This document shows, piece after piece, positions 6,529 through 13,906 of a stretch of DNA of 64,000 nucleotides (the stretch's first letter is position 1; each line of letters opens with the position of its first letter). This DNA comes from a virus, in the IMG/VR virus record IMGVR_UViG_3300050015_000276, positions 64,001 to 128,000 of that record, one strand, 5' to 3'. Made by a program: the position numbers and the translations under genes. The notes beneath the pieces were generated by a model that did not search any database, had not been told where the DNA came from, and saw only the letters and a program-made list of their open reading frames with translations.

Positions 6529-7452
6529 ATGCTAGGTCAAAATATCTGGAACTTTCATACTATTGAGCGTATCACACGCGCATTCGGATATATTTTTGAA
6601 GATATTTCTATTCAAAGAATTAATCCTACAACATCTGCGGTACAGACCATAAAAATTCCTATAAGCCTGGCATCAAAAGATAAATGGGTAATACGAGCGG
6701 CCGAGGATCCTTCGGCCGGTGACGAAACCAAACAACGTCATGTACAAATTGTCCTTCCAAGGTTGGCATACGATTTGACAAATATTCGGTATGATTCTAA
6801 ACGAAAATTATCTACTATCAATTATCGTGCAAACTTATCAGGTGACGGCATCTTATCTCCGATGTTCCAATTAAATCCGGTACCGATGATTTTTGATTTT
6901 TCTTTGTATATGCAAGCTAGAACTTTAAGCGATTCGTATGCCATTCTTGAACAAATTCTAGCATTTTTCCGGCCAGATTATACAGTTCCCATTATGGATA
7001 TTCCCGAGATGAATATCAAACGTGATATCATTATAACATTAATGAATCAATCTCATAGTGATTCATATGAAGGATCATTTTTCGATAAAAGAGTTATTGA
7101 ATGGCAATTAGATTTTCAAGCACAAGGTCATATTTATCCTCCGGTAAAGACTAAACCGCTTATCAATACTGCTACCATTACAGATGGATATGGGGATACA
7201 CTTCTTACTGTTACCAATGCAACTCTTCCAATAAATTATACTTATTATGTTGATCCTCTGACAGGAAATGACTCTAATTCAGGTTTATCTATTGATAGTG
7301 CGTGGGCCACAACAACACCAGCAGATGCAGTTACTTTAACAATATCTCAGTCAATAGGGTATAAACTTAATGGTGTATGGTACTTATATCGAGCACTAGG
7401 AATGACAGCCGATTTAAATTTATTAAGTGCTGATATTGTGTCGGTACCATAA
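6529..7452 (+). CDS. gp15: Tail sheath stabilizer/tail terminator gp15 with C-terminal extension
   Basis: IKIPISLASKDKW, VQIVLPRLAYDLTNIRYDSKRKL, PVPMIFDFSL, EQILAFFRPDYT; synteny. Confidence 0.9.
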   Translation: MLGQNIWNFHTIERITRAFGYIFEDISIQRINPTTSAVQTIKIPISLASKDKWVIRAAEDPSAGDETKQRHVQIVLPRLAYDLTNIRYDSKRKLSTINYRANLSGDGILSPMFQLNPVPMIFDFSLYMQARTLSDSYAILEQILAFFRPDYTVPIMDIPEMNIKRDIIITLMNQSHSDSYEGSFFDKRVIEWQLDFQAQGHIYPPVKTKPLINTATITDGYGDTLLTVTNATLPINYTYYVDPLTGNDSNSGLSIDSAWATTTPADAVTLTISQSIGYKLNGVWYLYRALGMTADLNLLSADIVSVP

Positions 7453-7481
7453 AATAGTTTCTAAATGTTCTAAATATTACT

Positions 7482-8015
7482 ATGGCACAACGTGGAAGAC
7501 CAAAAAAACAACCTATAGACCAACGGATCTCTTCGAGTTTAGATATTGCTCAAAAAGAAGTGGATTCACTATTACCTGCTGTTATACAAAATGAAATCAT
7601 TCCTAAAATTGAATCACCAGAAGTTTTAAAAGCTAATCTTCCCATTCTTTCACAAGATGTATTTGATGATTATGAATTTGCAAGGAATAATCTACATAGT
7701 CTTTTAGAACGCGGGAATACTATATTAGATGGAATTGTCGCATTATCTGAAGATAGCGATCAACCCCGAACTTTTGAAGTTGCTGGTAATGTCCTTAAAG
7801 TATTATTAGAAGGAACCAGAGAACTTATGACACTTCAAAAGGATATTAGAGAGGTTGAAAAGAAAAGTAATAGTGAAATGTCTACTCCTGTAAATATTGA
7901 AAATGCCACAGGAGTAACAAACAACACCATGGTTATTGAAGGAACTACACTTGAAATGCTAGAAATGCTCCAAAAAATGAAACAACAGAAATTAGAACAA
8001 CAAAATAAAGATTAG
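7482..8015 (+). CDS. gp16: Terminase small subunit gp16
   Basis: DDYEFARNNL...DQPRTFEVAGNVLK; immediately before gp17. Confidence 0.85.
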   Translation: MAQRGRPKKQPIDQRISSSLDIAQKEVDSLLPAVIQNEIIPKIESPEVLKANLPILSQDVFDDYEFARNNLHSLLERGNTILDGIVALSEDSDQPRTFEVAGNVLKVLLEGTRELMTLQKDIREVEKKSNSEMSTPVNIENATGVTNNTMVIEGTTLEMLEMLQKMKQQKLEQQNKD

Positions 8016-8021
8016 AGTGAT

Positions 8022-8942
8022 ATGAATTCCTACCTCGGCAATCCGGCATTAAAAGACGCTAACGTAAAGGTGGTTTGGACTCCTAAACGTTTAGAAGAAC
8101 TCCAAAAGTGTCAAGAGGATCCGGTTTACTTCATTACTCATTATATTCAGGTAGTAACATTAGATGAAGGTGTTACTAATTTCAAATTGTGGGATTTTCA
8201 AGCTAAATTAATTAAGAATGTACACGAAAATCGGTATGTTATTACCGTTATGCCGAGACAGTCTGGGAAATCAACAACCATGATTGCCTACTTTCTTCAT
8301 TTTATTTTATTCAACAAGTATAAAAGTGTTGCAATTCTTGCCAATAAACGCGATACTGCGGTTGAATTGTTGTCACGTCTTCAACTTGCTTTCGAATTAT
8401 TACCGATGTGGCTTCAACAAGGTGTTAAAGTTTGGAATAAAACGAGGATTGAACTTGAAAATGGTTGTATTATAACGGCTCATGCTACATCAAGCGCATC
8501 AGTTCGTGGACAGACATACAATATCATTTTCTTAGATGAATTCGCACATATTGATCCTAAATTGGCAGATAAGTTCTGGACTTCGACTTACCCCGTAATT
8601 TCTTCTGGTAAAACGTCAAAGGTTATTATTGTTTCAACGCCCAATGGAATGAATTTATTTTACGAGATGTGGGTGAAAGCAAATTTAGCTCACGATCATA
8701 AAGATTGGAATCAATTCATACCTCTTGAAGTTCATTATACTGAGGTACCCGGGAGAGAAGATCATGCCTGGGCAGATAAAATTATTTCTATAATTGGACA
8801 GGACCGATTCGATCAGGAATTTGGTCCGTGCGTACTAAAAACCCCTATATACTTATATGATACCATTTTACAAAAATGTGTTATAATACCTATAGGACAA
8901 TTATATGAAAGATTATGCGAACCTGAATTACTGGATAAATGA
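8022..8942 (+). CDS. gp17: Terminase large subunit gp17, N-terminal half (ATPase) fused to a 38-aa intein N-fragment
   Basis: YLGNP, RQSGKST Walker A, IIFLDEFAH, IIVSTPNGMN, ends FDQEFG then PCVLKTPIY...IGQLYERL*. Confidence 0.95.
   Translation: MNSYLGNPALKDANVKVVWTPKRLEELQKCQEDPVYFITHYIQVVTLDEGVTNFKLWDFQAKLIKNVHENRYVITVMPRQSGKSTTMIAYFLHFILFNKYKSVAILANKRDTAVELLSRLQLAFELLPMWLQQGVKVWNKTRIELENGCIITAHATSSASVRGQTYNIIFLDEFAHIDPKLADKFWTSTYPVISSGKTSKVIIVSTPNGMNLFYEMWVKANLAHDHKDWNQFIPLEVHYTEVPGREDHAWADKIISIIGQDRFDQEFGPCVLKTPIYLYDTILQKCVIIPIGQLYERLCEPELLDK
8826..8939 (+). other. Split intein N-fragment (Pro1; 38 aa) of gp17
   Basis: PCVLKTPIYLYD...IPIGQLYERL fits the block-A pattern C-x4-T-x-I...I-x-x-LY-x-RL of TerL split inteins, with P in the C1 slot. 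Confidence 0.8.
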
Positions 8943-9069
8943 ACGTGGTTTAAATGAAACTGAAGCCCAACAACGAATAGAACAATATTTACAACGCCAA
9001 CATGATTCTGCAATACTTAATTCCGAAGACTTTTGGATTAACAAAAGAAATTTTAGAAAACGATTATAA
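8905..9069 (+). CDS. Short ORF (54 aa, MKDYANLNYWINERGLNETEAQQRIEQY...), possibly the frameshifted N-terminus of the 9002 endonuclease
   Basis: Read by hand; SD AGGA; YWINERG motif resembles YWIEKG/YWIERG repeats of the 42086 nuclease. Confidence 0.45.
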   Translation: MKDYANLNYWINERGLNETEAQQRIEQYLQRQHDSAILNSEDFWINKRNFRKRL

Positions 9070-9991
9070 AGAACTAAAATCTAAATACCAAGTTAAATTA
9101 AAATATGGAATTTCATTACATGTAATACAGAGATGGTTTAAAGAATTTGGAATAGAAACTACCTATTACAAGAAAATTGATAAAGTAAAAATGAAGGAAC
9201 TTTGTATTTCCGGAGAACCTGTTATTTATGCCGCAGACCAATTAGGTTGTCCAATTCATTATTATACAACAGAACGCAATAGATTAGGTTGGGTTTCAGA
9301 GCCAAAATTATTTGATTTTGAAACAACCAAAAAATTATGTGAAGAAATTGTAGGAATTTATTCGCAAGGAATAGACAAGGCTTTTCTTGCCGATCCAAAT
9401 TTAAGACACAGTGTAGAACATTACACTAAAGACCATTTTTTGGAATCGGATAAATTTACCGAAAGAGTATATCGAATAATACATAATTATAAACCAGATC
9501 AAAAAGATAAATGTAAAGTTACTGATGAACCTTTAAAATTCTATACAATCGTAAAAGGATATGGAGAATCTGAATTAAAAATTTCTAAACGAGGATCATT
9601 ATATTGTAAGTCTGCTGTTTCACAAAAAATGTTCAATGAAATTCACAAAAAACTTCCAAAAAAATTGCAAAAGAAGTGTAAGTTTTCTTCATTGAATAAA
9701 GAAGGACAAGTAAAAATAAATAAAAAAGATCAAAAACTTCCAGGAATGAATAAATTTCATTATCAATTAGATTTTTGTCTTGATAAACATAATATTGAAT
9801 TTGATGGAACTTATTGGCACTCCAACCGAAAAAACCAAGATAGTACAAGAGATAAATACTTACAAGGAAAAGGATATAAAATTCTTAGGATTACAGAATC
9901 CGAATATAATAAATACCCAAAAATTACCGTACAAAAATGTCTACAATTCTTGAAGGACTCCAACAAAATAACGGCCGCTACAAAATCTTAA
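9002..9991 (+). CDS. Free-standing homing endonuclease, VSR/DUF559-type, between the gp17 halves
   Basis: N-terminal HTH-like segments; C-terminal YQLDF...IEFDGTYWH...RDKYLQGKGYKILRITE. Confidence 0.85.
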   Translation: MILQYLIPKTFGLTKEILENDYKELKSKYQVKLKYGISLHVIQRWFKEFGIETTYYKKIDKVKMKELCISGEPVIYAADQLGCPIHYYTTERNRLGWVSEPKLFDFETTKKLCEEIVGIYSQGIDKAFLADPNLRHSVEHYTKDHFLESDKFTERVYRIIHNYKPDQKDKCKVTDEPLKFYTIVKGYGESELKISKRGSLYCKSAVSQKMFNEIHKKLPKKLQKKCKFSSLNKEGQVKINKKDQKLPGMNKFHYQLDFCLDKHNIEFDGTYWHSNRKNQDSTRDKYLQGKGYKILRITESEYNKYPKITVQKCLQFLKDSNKITAATKS

Positions 9992-10293
9992 CACCAAATG
10001 GATATGAAGATTTTTCTGGTATAAGAAAATTAAAAAAAGATAAAGTTATTCATATCACTTTCATGGATGGTAGTTCAATTTCTTCCGCAGAAAATCATAT
10101 TTTTGTACTTTGGAATACAAAACTCATTTTTGCTGGAACATTAAAAGTTGGAGATGCTTTATACGCCAAAGATAGTATTCAATATATTTCCTCTATTGTT
10201 ATCGAAGAAAAAGAAACTGATTTTTATTGTGTTGTGAATTCTGGAAAAGATCAAGTTTATTTTAATGGAGAAAACAAAGTACTTTCCCACAAT
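9937..10293 (+). other. Split intein C-fragment of gp17 (block F Cys at 10228-10230; terminal His-Asn; +1 Cys)
   Basis: Translation of ORF 9937; SHN ends at 10293, TGT (+1 Cys) at 10294. Confidence 0.88.
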
Positions 10294-11226
10294 TGTGAGT
10301 TCCTTGGTTCTGGAGCTACATTAATTAATGGAAGATTTTTAAAAGCGATGGTTATTCTACCTCCAAAATATTCACAAAATGGTTTGGATGTATATAAAGA
10401 TCCCGGAAGAACTTTAAATGAACCTCGAATTTATGTTATTGCAGTTGATACCGCAAGAGGTAGACAACTGGATTATTCAGCATTTACTATCATCGACGTG
10501 ACGGAATCTCCTTATGAAGTAGTGGCTAAATATAGAAGTAATACCATTCCACCTGTTTTATTTGCTGATGTAATTGTTCCAATTGCTCAAAAATATAATA
10601 ATGCTTATATTATGATGGAAAATGATGGACCGGGATATCAAGTAGCAGATGATTTACATCACATACATGAATATCCTAATATTTTAATGGTTGCAACAAA
10701 AGGTCGGTCAGGACAAATATTAGCAACTGGATTTGGAAATACAGGTAAGAATGTTCAACGTGGTGTTAAAATGAGTACTCCGGTCCGTCGGACTGGTTGT
10801 ACCAATTTAAAAACACTTATCGAAACAAAACGATTAATTATCTATGATAATGACATAAAAGGTGAATTAGCCTCATTCGAATTGAAAGGTGATAAGTATC
10901 AGGCAGCCGAAAATCATCATGACGATTTGGTAATGACTCTGGTAACTTTTAGTTGGCTGACAACCCAAAAGCATTTTAGAGATATGGTTGAGGCCGCATT
11001 ACGTGAAGATTTACAAGAAGAATATACCCCGCAATTTGACCACGATTTAACCCCTTATGGATGGATTGAAACACACCATGATGTTGAAGAAGTTATACTT
11101 ACCGACAGAGATATTTGGAAAAGTGCTCAAAACGATGTTTGGGAACATTATGCCGAACAAGAACGGATAAAAGCTACCATTGATATGGTGAAATTAAAGC
11201 GATTGCAAGAAGTTGGTTGGGGTTAA
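9937..11226 (+). CDS. gp17: Intein C-fragment (119 aa) fused to terminase gp17 C-terminal nuclease half
   Basis: YKILTPNGY..F.GI, SSAENH, FYCVVN, LSHN|CEFLGSG, then IAVDTARGRQLDYSAF, MENDGPG, HDDLVM. Confidence 0.93.
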   Translation: MSTILEGLQQNNGRYKILTPNGYEDFSGIRKLKKDKVIHITFMDGSSISSAENHIFVLWNTKLIFAGTLKVGDALYAKDSIQYISSIVIEEKETDFYCVVNSGKDQVYFNGENKVLSHNCEFLGSGATLINGRFLKAMVILPPKYSQNGLDVYKDPGRTLNEPRIYVIAVDTARGRQLDYSAFTIIDVTESPYEVVAKYRSNTIPPVLFADVIVPIAQKYNNAYIMMENDGPGYQVADDLHHIHEYPNILMVATKGRSGQILATGFGNTGKNVQRGVKMSTPVRRTGCTNLKTLIETKRLIIYDNDIKGELASFELKGDKYQAAENHHDDLVMTLVTFSWLTTQKHFRDMVEAALREDLQEEYTPQFDHDLTPYGWIETHHDVEEVILTDRDIWKSAQNDVWEHYAEQERIKATIDMVKLKRLQEVGWG

Positions 11227-11250
11227 ATGAAATTTCAAAAATTGTGGAAA

Positions 11251-11258
11251 TATAAATA
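11251..11258 (+). promoter_or_regulatory. T4-type late promoter TATAAATA (gp18 operon)
   Basis: Exact T4 late consensus; further exact copies at 14521, 17638, 19970, 24688, 63511. Confidence 0.85.
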
Positions 11259-11320
11259 TCTTCGAAGCAAAGATTAAGAAATAATCAAAGTTAGAGATTA
11301 TAAAATAAGGAGATACATAA

Positions 11321-13906
11321 ATGGCATTTCAATTATTGAGTCCGGGTGTTCAAACCACCGAAATTGATCTATCAACCGTTGTGACCAGTCTTGCCACAAC
11401 TGGTGGTGTTATTGCCGGTCCTCTACCATGGGGCCCAGGTGGTGTAAAAACATTAGTTGATAGTGAAATTACCTTGGTTAATACTTTCGGAAAACCTGAT
11501 AATGATTCCGCCAATGTTTTTTTCTCAGCAGCTTCGTTTTTGCAATATGGAAATAACTTAAATGTTGTCCGTGTATTGCCAAAGAATGCTCGAAATGCTG
11601 CGGAAATTAACGATGGCGTAACATTCATCACAATTACAGTTCCTGGTGTGGGATACGTACACACACCAACATTAACATTTTCTAGTGGTTCAGCAACCGC
11701 AACCGCCTCGGTAGCAAATGGTGAAATCGTTGCGGTAACGGTCACTGCTCCTGGTTCGGGATATTCAGTAGAACATCCTCCAACTATTACAGTCACACCT
11801 AATGGTGGAGATACAATTACACAAGCGGCGAGTTTGACGCCAAGAGTTGGCGTACAAATCGCAAATGATACAGATTATACCTTCAATTATGCTGGTGGTA
11901 CTGAAGGTGTTGGACAATTTGCTGCCAAATATGCTGGTGAATTAGGAAATGGATTACAAGTTTTTATTTGTGACAATCCTAGTCAGTATGCTTCGTGGAC
12001 TTATAAAAATCAATTTACTAGTGCTCCGGGAACATCAGATTATGTTGCTAATTTGGGTGGTAGTAATGATGAACTTCATATCGTAGTAGTTGATACGGTT
12101 GGTATCATTACCGGTACTGCTGGTGATGTTGTTGAAAAATTCGGTTTTGTGTCTAAAGCATCAGATGCCAAGAATGCACAAGGACAAAGTATTTATTATC
12201 CGCAGGTGCTAACAACCCAATCTCAATGGATTCGATGGATGAATTTTCCTTCAACTGTTTATAATTGGGGAACACCTTCAAGAAATACAGTATATGATGG
12301 TTACTTCGTGAATGGTGCGGCCGCGTATTTAACTGTTGGCGCGACAAATTCAGGTATTCGTTATGCCTCTAAAGTTCCTGGAACTGGTGGAAATGCGATT
12401 ACAGTTCAATATACAAATCCTGGAGTAAACAGTGCATTATCAGTTGCCGTTAATGGTACAGCAATCAATGTGACTTTAGCATATGCAACTGGTGCAGTTA
12501 CTTCAACTGCAAAAAACGTGCGTGATGCTATTTTAGCCTATCCTGCTGCCGCAGCTTTAGTTTCTGCTGAGTATGTGGTTGGTGGAAATGGTGCAGATCT
12601 TGTTGTTGCTTCTGGACCAACCAATTTGACCGGCGGTGTCAATGGTCCTGGAAATAAAGCAGTTCTTGACGTTTTTAGTGGAAATAAAGGAATAACATAC
12701 ACCGCAGTTAATTATGGTGCGAATGGTAACCTTGTCACTATAACCTATACTGATCCGGGTGGGGTCTCTGCAACACTAGGAGTGACCGTAACTGGAACAG
12801 CAATTAATGTAAATTTGGGCCGCGCTACGAGTGCAATTAATACAACGGCTGCTAATTTACAGACTCTATTAGCTGCCACTCCTGCTGTAACAGCTTTAGT
12901 AACAGCAACTCTTAATGGTGATGGTTCGTCATTATTGACAGCATCTAGTACAACTCCATTAGCAAATGGTGCCGATCCTGCCGTATATTCTGTATTGTTA
13001 GAGGGTGGACAATCTGTAGGATCTGAAGTAACTGATGGTGAAATTATCCTTGGTTATGACAAGTTCTTAGATGAAGAATTCCAATTTGCATTATTGATTA
13101 CGGCAGACCATAGTCCTACTGTTGTTCAGTATTGTATTTCTAATATCTCCGAATTTCGTAGAGATAACGTAACTTTCATTTCGCCACAGTATTCGTCTGT
13201 TGTGAACAATATTGGTAATGAATCAACAGATGTTATCACTGATCGTAATGTTTATGGCAGTTCAAGTTATGCCTTTATGGATGGCAATTGGCTTCAAATT
13301 TACGATAAATATAATGATTTGTACCGTTGGGTTCCAGCAAATGGTAGTGTAGCTGGACTCTGCGTGCGAACTGATTATACACGCGATCCATGGTTCTCAC
13401 CTGCTGGTTTGAATAGAGGAAACATCAAGAATGTGACCGGTTTGGCGTGGAATCCTCGCCAAGCATACCGCGATGTACTATATCAAGCGGGCGTAAACCC
13501 AATTGTTTCCTTCCCTGGTCAAGGTGCTGTATTATTTGGCGATAAGACCATGCAAGTGAAACCATCAGCATTTGACCGTATTAACGTTCGTAGGTTATTC
13601 ATTGTAATTGAACAAGCAATTGCCAAAGCAGCAAAATATGTTTTGTTCGAATTCAACGATGATGTTACCAGAACGCAGTTCCGTGGTTTGATCGATCCAT
13701 TCTTACGAGATATTCAAGGCCGTCGTGGTCTTTATGCTTATAAGATCGTTTGTGATTCTTCAAATAATACACCACAAATGATTGATACAAATCGATTCCA
13801 AGGTGATATTTATTTGCAGCCAGCGAGATCGATTAACTTTATTCAATTGAATTTCATCGCCACGCGTACAGGTGTTGATTTCAATACTATTGTCGGACAA
13901 TTCTAA
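11321..13906 (+). CDS. gp18: Tail sheath protein gp18 (861 aa, with duplicated inserted domains)
   Basis: LSPGVQTTEID, FGKPDNDSA, FLQYGNNL, DPWFSPAGLNRG, AFDRINVRRLF, VLFEFND, RSINFIQLNF. Confidence 0.97.
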   Translation: MAFQLLSPGVQTTEIDLSTVVTSLATTGGVIAGPLPWGPGGVKTLVDSEITLVNTFGKPDNDSANVFFSAASFLQYGNNLNVVRVLPKNARNAAEINDGVTFITITVPGVGYVHTPTLTFSSGSATATASVANGEIVAVTVTAPGSGYSVEHPPTITVTPNGGDTITQAASLTPRVGVQIANDTDYTFNYAGGTEGVGQFAAKYAGELGNGLQVFICDNPSQYASWTYKNQFTSAPGTSDYVANLGGSNDELHIVVVDTVGIITGTAGDVVEKFGFVSKASDAKNAQGQSIYYPQVLTTQSQWIRWMNFPSTVYNWGTPSRNTVYDGYFVNGAAAYLTVGATNSGIRYASKVPGTGGNAITVQYTNPGVNSALSVAVNGTAINVTLAYATGAVTSTAKNVRDAILAYPAAAALVSAEYVVGGNGADLVVASGPTNLTGGVNGPGNKAVLDVFSGNKGITYTAVNYGANGNLVTITYTDPGGVSATLGVTVTGTAINVNLGRATSAINTTAANLQTLLAATPAVTALVTATLNGDGSSLLTASSTTPLANGADPAVYSVLLEGGQSVGSEVTDGEIILGYDKFLDEEFQFALLITADHSPTVVQYCISNISEFRRDNVTFISPQYSSVVNNIGNESTDVITDRNVYGSSSYAFMDGNWLQIYDKYNDLYRWVPANGSVAGLCVRTDYTRDPWFSPAGLNRGNIKNVTGLAWNPRQAYRDVLYQAGVNPIVSFPGQGAVLFGDKTMQVKPSAFDRINVRRLFIVIEQAIAKAAKYVLFEFNDDVTRTQFRGLIDPFLRDIQGRRGLYAYKIVCDSSNNTPQMIDTNRFQGDIYLQPARSINFIQLNFIATRTGVDFNTIVGQF

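Follow-up and report, generated by a model that had tools for sequence, protein, structure and literature searches.

A split intein with proline at residue 1 and cysteine at block F position 4 in the terminase large subunit of a T4-like phage

The 64,000-nt stretch of viral DNA analyzed here (the window; positions 64,001 to 128,000 of the IMG/VR record IMGVR_UViG_3300050015_000276) carries the gene for the terminase large subunit (TerL, gp17) as two open reading frames (ORFs) on the plus strand, each of which contains one part of a split intein. The upstream ORF (8022-8942, 306 amino acids (aa)) matches the Pfam family Terminase_6N with an E-value of 4e-21 and ends in the N-terminal intein fragment (IntN). 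Its extein (8022-8825, residues 1-268) comprises the ATPase part of the enzyme, terminates in DQEFG and is 54-56% identical to TerL of T4-like cyanophage, pelagiphage and Melnitz (tblastn). The downstream ORF (9937-11226, 429 aa) begins with the C-terminal intein fragment (IntC), which is followed by the C-extein with the nuclease part (10294-11226, 310 aa and the stop codon). This extein starts with CEFLGSG, the codon of Cys+1 being 10294-10296, and matches Terminase_6C (Pfam, E 1e-12) as well as the structures of gp17 from T4 and RB49 (E 1e-27). The last 38 residues in the upstream half and the first 119 in the downstream half are not part of a terminase. IntN (8826-8942, 38 aa and the stop codon) starts with Pro1 (CCG, 8826-8828) and Cys2 (TGC, 8829-8831), and IntC (9937-10293, 119 aa) ends in SHN, with His118-Asn119 at 10288-10293. 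An earlier note on this DNA had described the same two-ORF anatomy, with a 38-aa IntN and a 119-aa IntC, and its positions and residues were found to be correct, as was the intein character of the downstream piece, which matches CatC (see below).

According to the structure matches, the insertion site is located at the inter-domain hinge of gp17. The host virus record is 179,687 bp long, has terminal repeats, is rated 100% complete and represents a T4-like phage. The whole genome contains one match to Terminase_6N and one match to Terminase_6C, and thus the split gene is the sole TerL gene of this phage. A promoter and terminator scan of the region 7300-11500 gave no signal above shuffled controls.

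The boundaries of the intein could be deduced from alleles without an insertion. Closely related alleles of this TerL lineage that lack the intein (L016/P0012 with 88% identity, L053-L065 and P0164-P0166; about 8 distinct sequences with 66-89% identity) read DQEFG-CEF(L/I)GS, with no residue between Gly and Cys. More distant intein-free TerL proteins (pelagiphage HTVC008M, S-CREM1, Melnitz and a virus from a marine single amplified genome) read EFE-CEFLGS, with identical spacing. Because the empty-site alleles lack any intervening residue, the insert spans exactly the region from Pro (8826-8828) to Asn119. The register of IntN leads to the same start: every readable related IntN fits the pattern (C/S)1-x4-(T/S)6-x-(I/V/L)8, and in the window, which reads P-C-V-L-K-T-P-I, Pro is in register with Cys1 or Ser1 of the relatives. 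In addition, the stretch from Pro1 to Asp12 aligns without gaps to the nearest outgroup, L020, which has Cys1-Phe2 and is 46% identical in IntC. Pro as residue 1 of the intein is therefore well supported, and the residue-1 Cys or Ser nucleophile of the atypically split TerL inteins is absent. An intein that begins at Cys, with Pro as the extein residue at −1, was rejected as the ancestral boundary on the basis of the empty-site alleles and the register. These results bear out two statements of the earlier note, namely that the host motif is restored only if the intein starts at Pro, and that Pro takes the place of residue 1 in the C-x4-T-x-I pattern. Among intein-free TerL alleles, two deviate at the position equivalent to Cys+1, where they have Gly or Asn (DQEFG-G/N-EFLGS; L066:3501-3614 and L067:1886-1993).

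The present-day junction could still differ from the ancestral one. In this case, Cys2 would be the N-terminal nucleophile of a class 1 reaction, the splice site would have moved by one residue, and Pro would be kept in the product (EFGP-CEF). A Cys-Val start is common among the relatives, and the hinge site of gp17 might tolerate one extra residue. However, Gly-Pro-Cys occurs in 0 of the about 8 distinct intein-free alleles, Thr6, Ile8 and Asp12 have kept their distances from residue 1, and Cys2 would be one strand position off register, so that it would probably face away from the active site. Furthermore, Pro at −1 made splicing undetectable in one split intein (PMC13014065), and the Cys adjacent to the junction in other relatives (the L009 type) is not residue 1. 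In this type, found in L009:1991-2872 and also in L010 and L037-L040, an intein with Asp at position 4 of block F (F:4) follows an extein that ends in QEF-Cys, and the intein continues with Ser-Val-Leu. Spacing and register make Ser residue 1 and Cys the extein residue −1, a GOS-TerL-like arrangement with Ser1 and Cys+1, and thus the Cys(−1)-Ser1 of the L009 type is the mirror image of Pro1-Cys2 in the window.

To which intein family the element belongs follows from the homology of IntC. In the PDB, it matches chain B of 6DSL (CatC, from Cat, the consensus split intein of the atypical TerL type), with an E-value of 9e-16 over residues 11-124, and the gp41-1 intein was matched at 1e-6. Class 3 structures were absent from the PDB matches of IntC up to an E-value of 10. 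By contrast, a genuine class 3 intein in the TerL of a relative matches 6RIX/6BS8 at 1e-26 to 5e-27. Descent from canonical class 3 inteins of the DnaB1 type was rejected, because the IntC lacks a class 3 match in the PDB while the true class 3 intein of the relative matches strongly. When 1.84 billion representatives were searched exhaustively without a profile, 561 relatives were obtained, 88 of which match at E<=1e-10. The window intein, in which IntN is short and IntC long, interrupts TerL directly ahead of the Cys of CEFLGS, a site that it shares with L020, L021 and L030-L032. By descent and architecture, as judged from homology, the intein of the window is a member of the class 1 family of Cat, AceL-TerL and GOS-TerL. 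The assignment to the atypically split AceL-TerL/GOS-TerL type, already made in the earlier note, is thus upheld by the homology to Cat, the identical site and the short IntN.

The relative with the genuine class 3 intein deserves a description of its own. In L005:1385-3289 (= P0162; also in L006, L028 and L069/P0163), a TerL N-half with the Ser1 form of the split intein is interrupted by a further intein, about 330 aa long and equipped with a LAGLIDADG domain. It is inserted in the P-loop, after GK and before STTM; its first residue is Ala, positions B:12, F:4 and G:5 hold Trp, Cys and Thr, respectively, and it matches the class 3 DnaB1 inteins 6RIX/6BS8 with an E-value of about 1e-26. A single terminase thus combines a canonical class 3 intein and a split intein with Ser1 and F:4 Cys, while the terminase of the window has no second intein.

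The second unusual residue of the window intein, Cys98 (TGT, 10228-10230), is at position F:4 and is the proposed initiating nucleophile. Its counterparts in the alignments are the F:4 Asp residues of Cat and gp41-1 and the engineered Cys107 of 6RIZ. The latter is gp41-1_WCT, and its authors superimposed Cys107 on Cys124, the class 3 nucleophile of MchDnaB1 (PMC7664689). As the earlier note had recognized, most relatives have Asp at this position: in the 150 best of the 561 relatives, it was present in 173 of 198 aligned stretches. A true F:4 Cys was confined to the window's own small clade in this set, and two other apparent cases were one-column slips adjoining Tyr-Asp. Related inteins with Thr or Ser at F:4 also exist (P0025, P0118 and P0129), and in these, the penultimate His is replaced by Lys. 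Within the clade, the TGT codon is invariant in five lineages, and His54 (B:10), Cys98, His118, Asn119 and Cys+1 are invariant throughout. The core of block B (10087-10104) contains, according to the alignments, Ala51 (B:7), His54 (B:10) and Phe56 (B:12). B:7 is the variable position: it is Ala in the two lineages with Pro1, Thr in the lineages with Ser1, and Ser in most relatives with F:4 Asp.

Operationally, class 3 inteins are defined by the absence of Cys at residue 1 and the presence of Cys at C2:4 (PMC7891396). The window intein has neither Cys nor Ser nor Thr at residue 1, and it has a Cys at F:4, which is motif position C2:4. A non-nucleophilic residue 1 and Cys at +1 might also permit a route as in class 2 inteins of the KlbA type. 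In a class 2-like reaction, Cys+1 would attack the Gly-Pro bond directly, and the F:4 Cys would be a tolerated replacement of Asp; that it can be tolerated is indicated by the Ser1 sisters, in which an F:4 Cys coexists with what is otherwise a class 1 arrangement. However, Cys+1 belongs to the host motif CEFLGS and is present regardless, so that it carries no signal, and this explanation does not account for the fact that the only change from Asp to Cys at F:4 in the family falls in the clade that lost residue-1 chemistry. We regard it as very unlikely.

To reconstruct the history of these residues, the N and C halves were paired by fetching the contigs of the relatives. The window has Pro-Cys-Val at residues 1-3 (codon 1 CCG), Ala at B:7, Cys at F:4 and a frameshifted endonuclease gene. 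The L012 lineage (= L013, L014, L017, L019, L027 and L049) also has Pro-Cys-Val, with CCT as codon 1, Ala at B:7 and Cys at F:4, and its endonuclease is intact. All other clade members with a readable N-half have Ser1. L052/L050 have Ser-Phe-Cys (TCA), with Thr at B:7, Cys at F:4 and an intact endonuclease in L052, and L005/L006/L028 have Ser-Phe-Cys (AGT), Thr at B:7, Cys at F:4 and no endonuclease. L015 (Ser-Phe-Ser, AGT; C-half beyond the contig end) and L069 (Ser-Phe-Thr, AGC; C-half not recovered) both have an endonuclease, and so have L007/L008, in which the N-half lies beyond the contig end and B:7 and F:4 are Thr and Cys, respectively. L069 and L008 are from one sample and may belong to one phage. 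The outgroup L020 has Cys-Phe-His (TGT), Ser at B:7, Asp at F:4 and no endonuclease.

Ser1 and F:4 Cys are thus present on one contig in two sister lineages, L005 and L052. Because of this coexistence, the F:4 Cys is a clade-wide feature and is not tied to the loss of the residue-1 nucleophile. The earlier note had proposed an independent derivation from a class 1 TerL intein by coupled changes from Cys1 to Pro and from Asp to Cys. The class 1 descent stands, in view of the match to CatC and the lack of class 3 matches, but the coupling does not, as L005 and L052 combine Ser1 with F:4 Cys. Nor is F:4 Cys restricted to Pro1 in the metagenomic relatives, since it also occurs with Ser1; what travels with Pro1 is the replacement of Phe2 by Cys2 and, at B:7, of Thr by Ala. 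The first of these, in exactly the lineages in which Ser1 was replaced by Pro, would fit a takeover by Cys2 as the nucleophile of a class 1 reaction with a displaced junction. In contrast, the B:7 Thr, which helps in the class 1 acyl shift, was lost in the same lineages. Together with the evidence from the empty-site alleles and the register given above, we judge a displacement of the junction to Cys2 to be unlikely, though it is kept as a mechanistic rival.

In the IntC tree, the clade has support values of 97/99, and the two Pro1 rows form successive basal branches with weak support. Monophyly of the Pro1 lineages was not rejected in an approximately unbiased test (p 0.36), and for the direction of change, from Ser to Pro or from Pro to Ser, the tree favors neither a derived nor an ancestral Pro1. 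The first five codons of IntN of the Ser1 and Pro1 forms have the sequence GTACAAAA in common, one base out of frame (L052:2539-2766 compared with L012:3401-3445 and window 8826-8843). This suggests that a compensated frameshift rewrote residues 3-4 of IntN from Cys-Thr to Val-Gln. The frameshift was rejected as the origin of Pro1 or Cys2, because it yields neither of them and accounts for residues 3-4 alone.

The L012 lineage also shows that the Pro codon is real. It was recovered in JGI, ENA and Logan assemblies, its proteins are 75-78% identical to those of the window, and it has CCT at the same position. An error of sequencing or assembly at codon 8826-8828 was therefore rejected, and its probability is negligible. 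When the two Pro1 lineages are compared, the intein fragments, with a synonymous divergence (dS) of 0.5-0.8, have a ratio of nonsynonymous to synonymous substitution rates (dN/dS) of 0.27 (IntN) and 0.22 (IntC), and the N-extein has one of 0.08. The Pro1 intein is thus maintained under purifying selection.

These values bear on the explanation that covalent splicing does not occur at all. The Pro1 form might be dead or capable of cleavage only, with the intein fragments keeping the two TerL halves together without a covalent bond, or the sequences might be non-viable metagenomic variants. Splicing itself is a prediction here, Pro1 would abolish the activity of an ordinary class 1 intein (PMC2807308), and the frameshifted endonuclease gene of the window indicates that the element is not intact in every part. 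Several facts argue against this explanation: two lineages at a dS of 0.5-0.8 retain the intein under a dN/dS of 0.2-0.3, the C-terminal splice residues and the His at B:10 are invariant although mere association would not need them, and the complete genome has no second TerL. We consider the absence of splicing distinctly unlikely.

The free-standing homing endonuclease encoded between the two halves, on which the earlier note is silent, is of the Vsr-like type (DUF559/MTES_1575; Pfam DUF559, E 2e-7), and its gene (8905-9991) overlaps with the IntN region by 38 nt and with the IntC region by 55 nt. In the window it is in two frames (8905-9069 and 9002-9991) because of one extra base in a T run at about 9036-9040, relative to L012. 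Intact homologues of 354 aa (L012) and 356 aa were found in L012 and L052. The frameshift represents either decay or a homopolymer error, and the intein halves are unaffected by it. When synonymous sites are compared between the two Pro1 lineages, a fraction of 0.71 differs in the N-extein and a smaller one, 0.47, in the intein (Fisher p 2e-4). This lends modest support to the view that the cassette of intein and endonuclease moved between phages by homing after it had gained Pro1; the support is only modest because the value of the extein is near saturation.

The combination of residues points to a splicing route that resembles that of class 3 inteins, started by the F:4 Cys and acquired independently within the class 1 family. 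This is the best reading of the locus, and in our estimate the chances that it is correct are about even. The 38-aa IntN would dock onto the 119-aa IntC and thereby rebuild the HINT (Hedgehog/intein) fold. With Pro at residue 1, the usual N-S or N-O acyl shift by this residue would be impossible. Instead, the thiol of Cys98 would attack the Gly268-Pro269 bond and take over the N-extein as a thioester, forming a block F branched intermediate, and the N-extein would then be transferred to Cys+1. Cyclization of Asn119 and an S-N shift would yield DQEFG-CEFLGSG, as in the intein-free alleles. The class-3-like state would be an independent and recent acquisition, beside which the forms with Ser1 and F:4 Cys persist. 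Both the occurrence of splicing and the choice of the F:4 Cys, rather than another thiol, as the starting nucleophile are what we infer from the sequences.

Several published results make this route plausible. In standard inteins, non-conservative replacement of residue 1 leaves neither splicing nor cleavage of the N-terminal amide, whereas the class 3 prototype, the DnaB intein of mycobacteriophage Bethlehem (MP-Be DnaB), has Pro1 and splices via an obligate F:4 Cys (PMC2807308). In the structure of the AceL NrdHF intein, the modelled F:4 thiol occupies the place of the class 1 F:4 Asp, at a distance of 3.0 Å to the scissile carbonyl (PMC7891396). As Pro1 cannot perform an acyl shift, and in view of the MP-Be DnaB precedent and the NrdHF geometry, an attack by Cys98 would be the most economical reading. 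In addition, N-terminal cleavage of MP-Be DnaB is independent of B:7 (PMC2807308), and B:7 is unconserved in class 3 inteins (PMC7891396). For these reasons, a class 3 route agrees with the finding that precisely the Pro1 lineages have lost the B:7 Thr.

Other observations weigh against a start by the F:4 Cys. When W, C and T were grafted onto the related class 1 intein gp41-1, no splicing class 3 intein was obtained (PMC7664689), and thus an F:4 Cys is insufficient by itself. The Trp-Cys-Thr (WCT) triplet of class 3 is incomplete in the window, with Phe56 at B:12 and Ser117 at G:5, so that it reads Phe-Cys-Ser, as the earlier note had described. Deviations from the triplet are found in about 5-6% of class 3 inteins, among them AceL NrdHF with Met at B:12 (PMC7891396). 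Residue +1 is Cys, whereas Ser or Thr is usual in class 3. Pro1 is always paired with a new Cys2, a possible replacement nucleophile. Moreover, Ser1 of the sister lineages is encoded by two unrelated codon families, AGY and TCA, which require passage through Cys or Thr, or two separate derivations from Cys. Because Ser1 is written in both families, the codons suggest that the residue-1 nucleophile is still under selection in the sisters, despite their F:4 Cys. Finally, only two Pro1 lineages are known, and these may go back to a single event.

Compared with known systems, the window intein shares with GOS-TerL, AceL-TerL and Cat the TerL host, the EFx-CEFLGS site, Cys+1 and a split after the first helix, giving 38+119 aa in the window. 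GOS-TerL (Ser1/Cys+1, 37+115 aa) and AceL-TerL (Cys1, 25+104 aa) are both class 1. It differs from this group, which has Cys1 or Ser1, F:4 Asp and the class 1 route, by Pro1, F:4 Cys and Ala at B:7. With the MP-Be DnaB intein (Tori et al., 2010; PMC2807308) it has Pro1, F:4 Cys and the phage origin in common, but that intein is cis-splicing, 341 aa long, has the full WCT triplet and Thr+1, and belongs to the canonical class 3 lineage.

The claim of the earlier note that no naturally split class 3 intein had been described does not hold, because a report on AceL NrdHF appeared in 2020 (Hoffmann et al., 2020; PMC7891396). Like the window intein, AceL NrdHF is naturally split, phage-like and encoded in a fractured gene that is accompanied by a free-standing endonuclease, and it has a non-nucleophilic residue 1, F:4 Cys and an incomplete WCT triplet (MCT, compared with FCS in the window). 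Unlike the window intein, it has a typical split site (98+48), Ala1, Ser+1, a GIY-YIG endonuclease and another host gene. Its similarity to other inteins is low, whereas the window intein is split near the N-terminus and is found within a well-studied class 1 family. Furthermore, its mechanism is proven, while that of the window intein is predicted from sequence. No report of a class 3-type intein with an atypical split and a short IntN, or within the TerL family, was found in a literature search that was thin on subscription journals and is weak evidence. A paper from 2026 (PMC13014065) cites atypically split inteins including AceL-TerL and GOS-TerL (its references 27 and 31-33) and names PolB16 and VidaL; a class 3 case is unmentioned.

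The gene arrangement itself is known. A gp17 terminase locus already featured in the first description of fractured genes (Dassa et al., 2009; PMC2677866), and as in these, two ORFs with intein halves flank a Vsr-like endonuclease gene that overlaps with the downstream ORF; the sole difference is the frameshift in the endonuclease gene of the window. Further rearrangements were observed in related phages. In L020:1998-3973 (= L029), the TerL N-half is interrupted, and the matches to window residues ~61-169 and ~169-267 are 1.2 kb apart. The upstream frame continues into a basic, endonuclease-like sequence, and this terminase may be in three pieces. In L009:5300-6070, L010:3319-4089 and L011:1764-2534, a Terminase_6N-like ORF of 256 aa directly follows the TerL C-half; it stops just past ECEF and thus duplicates the TerL N-domain in truncated form. 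Precomputed Pfam matches show that the portal gene (Portal_T4) in L007:4764-5735 also has an intein (PF14890).

Whether class 3 inteins arose by divergence from class 1 or separately is an unsettled question of intein evolution. Their origin is debated, and the failed grafting of WCT onto gp41-1 has been used to argue for a separate, protease-like origin (PMC7664689). The clade described here shows the class 3 signature inside a biochemically well-known class 1 family. Its members may form a natural series from Cys1 with F:4 Asp (outgroup) via Ser1 with F:4 Cys (sister lineages) to Pro1 with F:4 Cys and without the B:7 Thr (window). If so, the window would contain the first atypically split class 3-type intein with a short IntN, and class 3 chemistry would have arisen from class 1 without the W-C-T triplet; we advance this tentatively, at slightly less than even confidence. 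The natural forms with Ser1/F:4 Cys and Pro1/F:4 Cys, at about 70% identity, are direct material for comparison. If splicing occurs as proposed, the 38-aa IntN would be a tag without an N-terminal nucleophile, useful for protein ligation, and if Cys2 is the nucleophile, the splice junction would have migrated by one residue, which would also be unusual. The main interest of the clade is that it may represent a natural transition from class 1 to class 3 with living intermediates.

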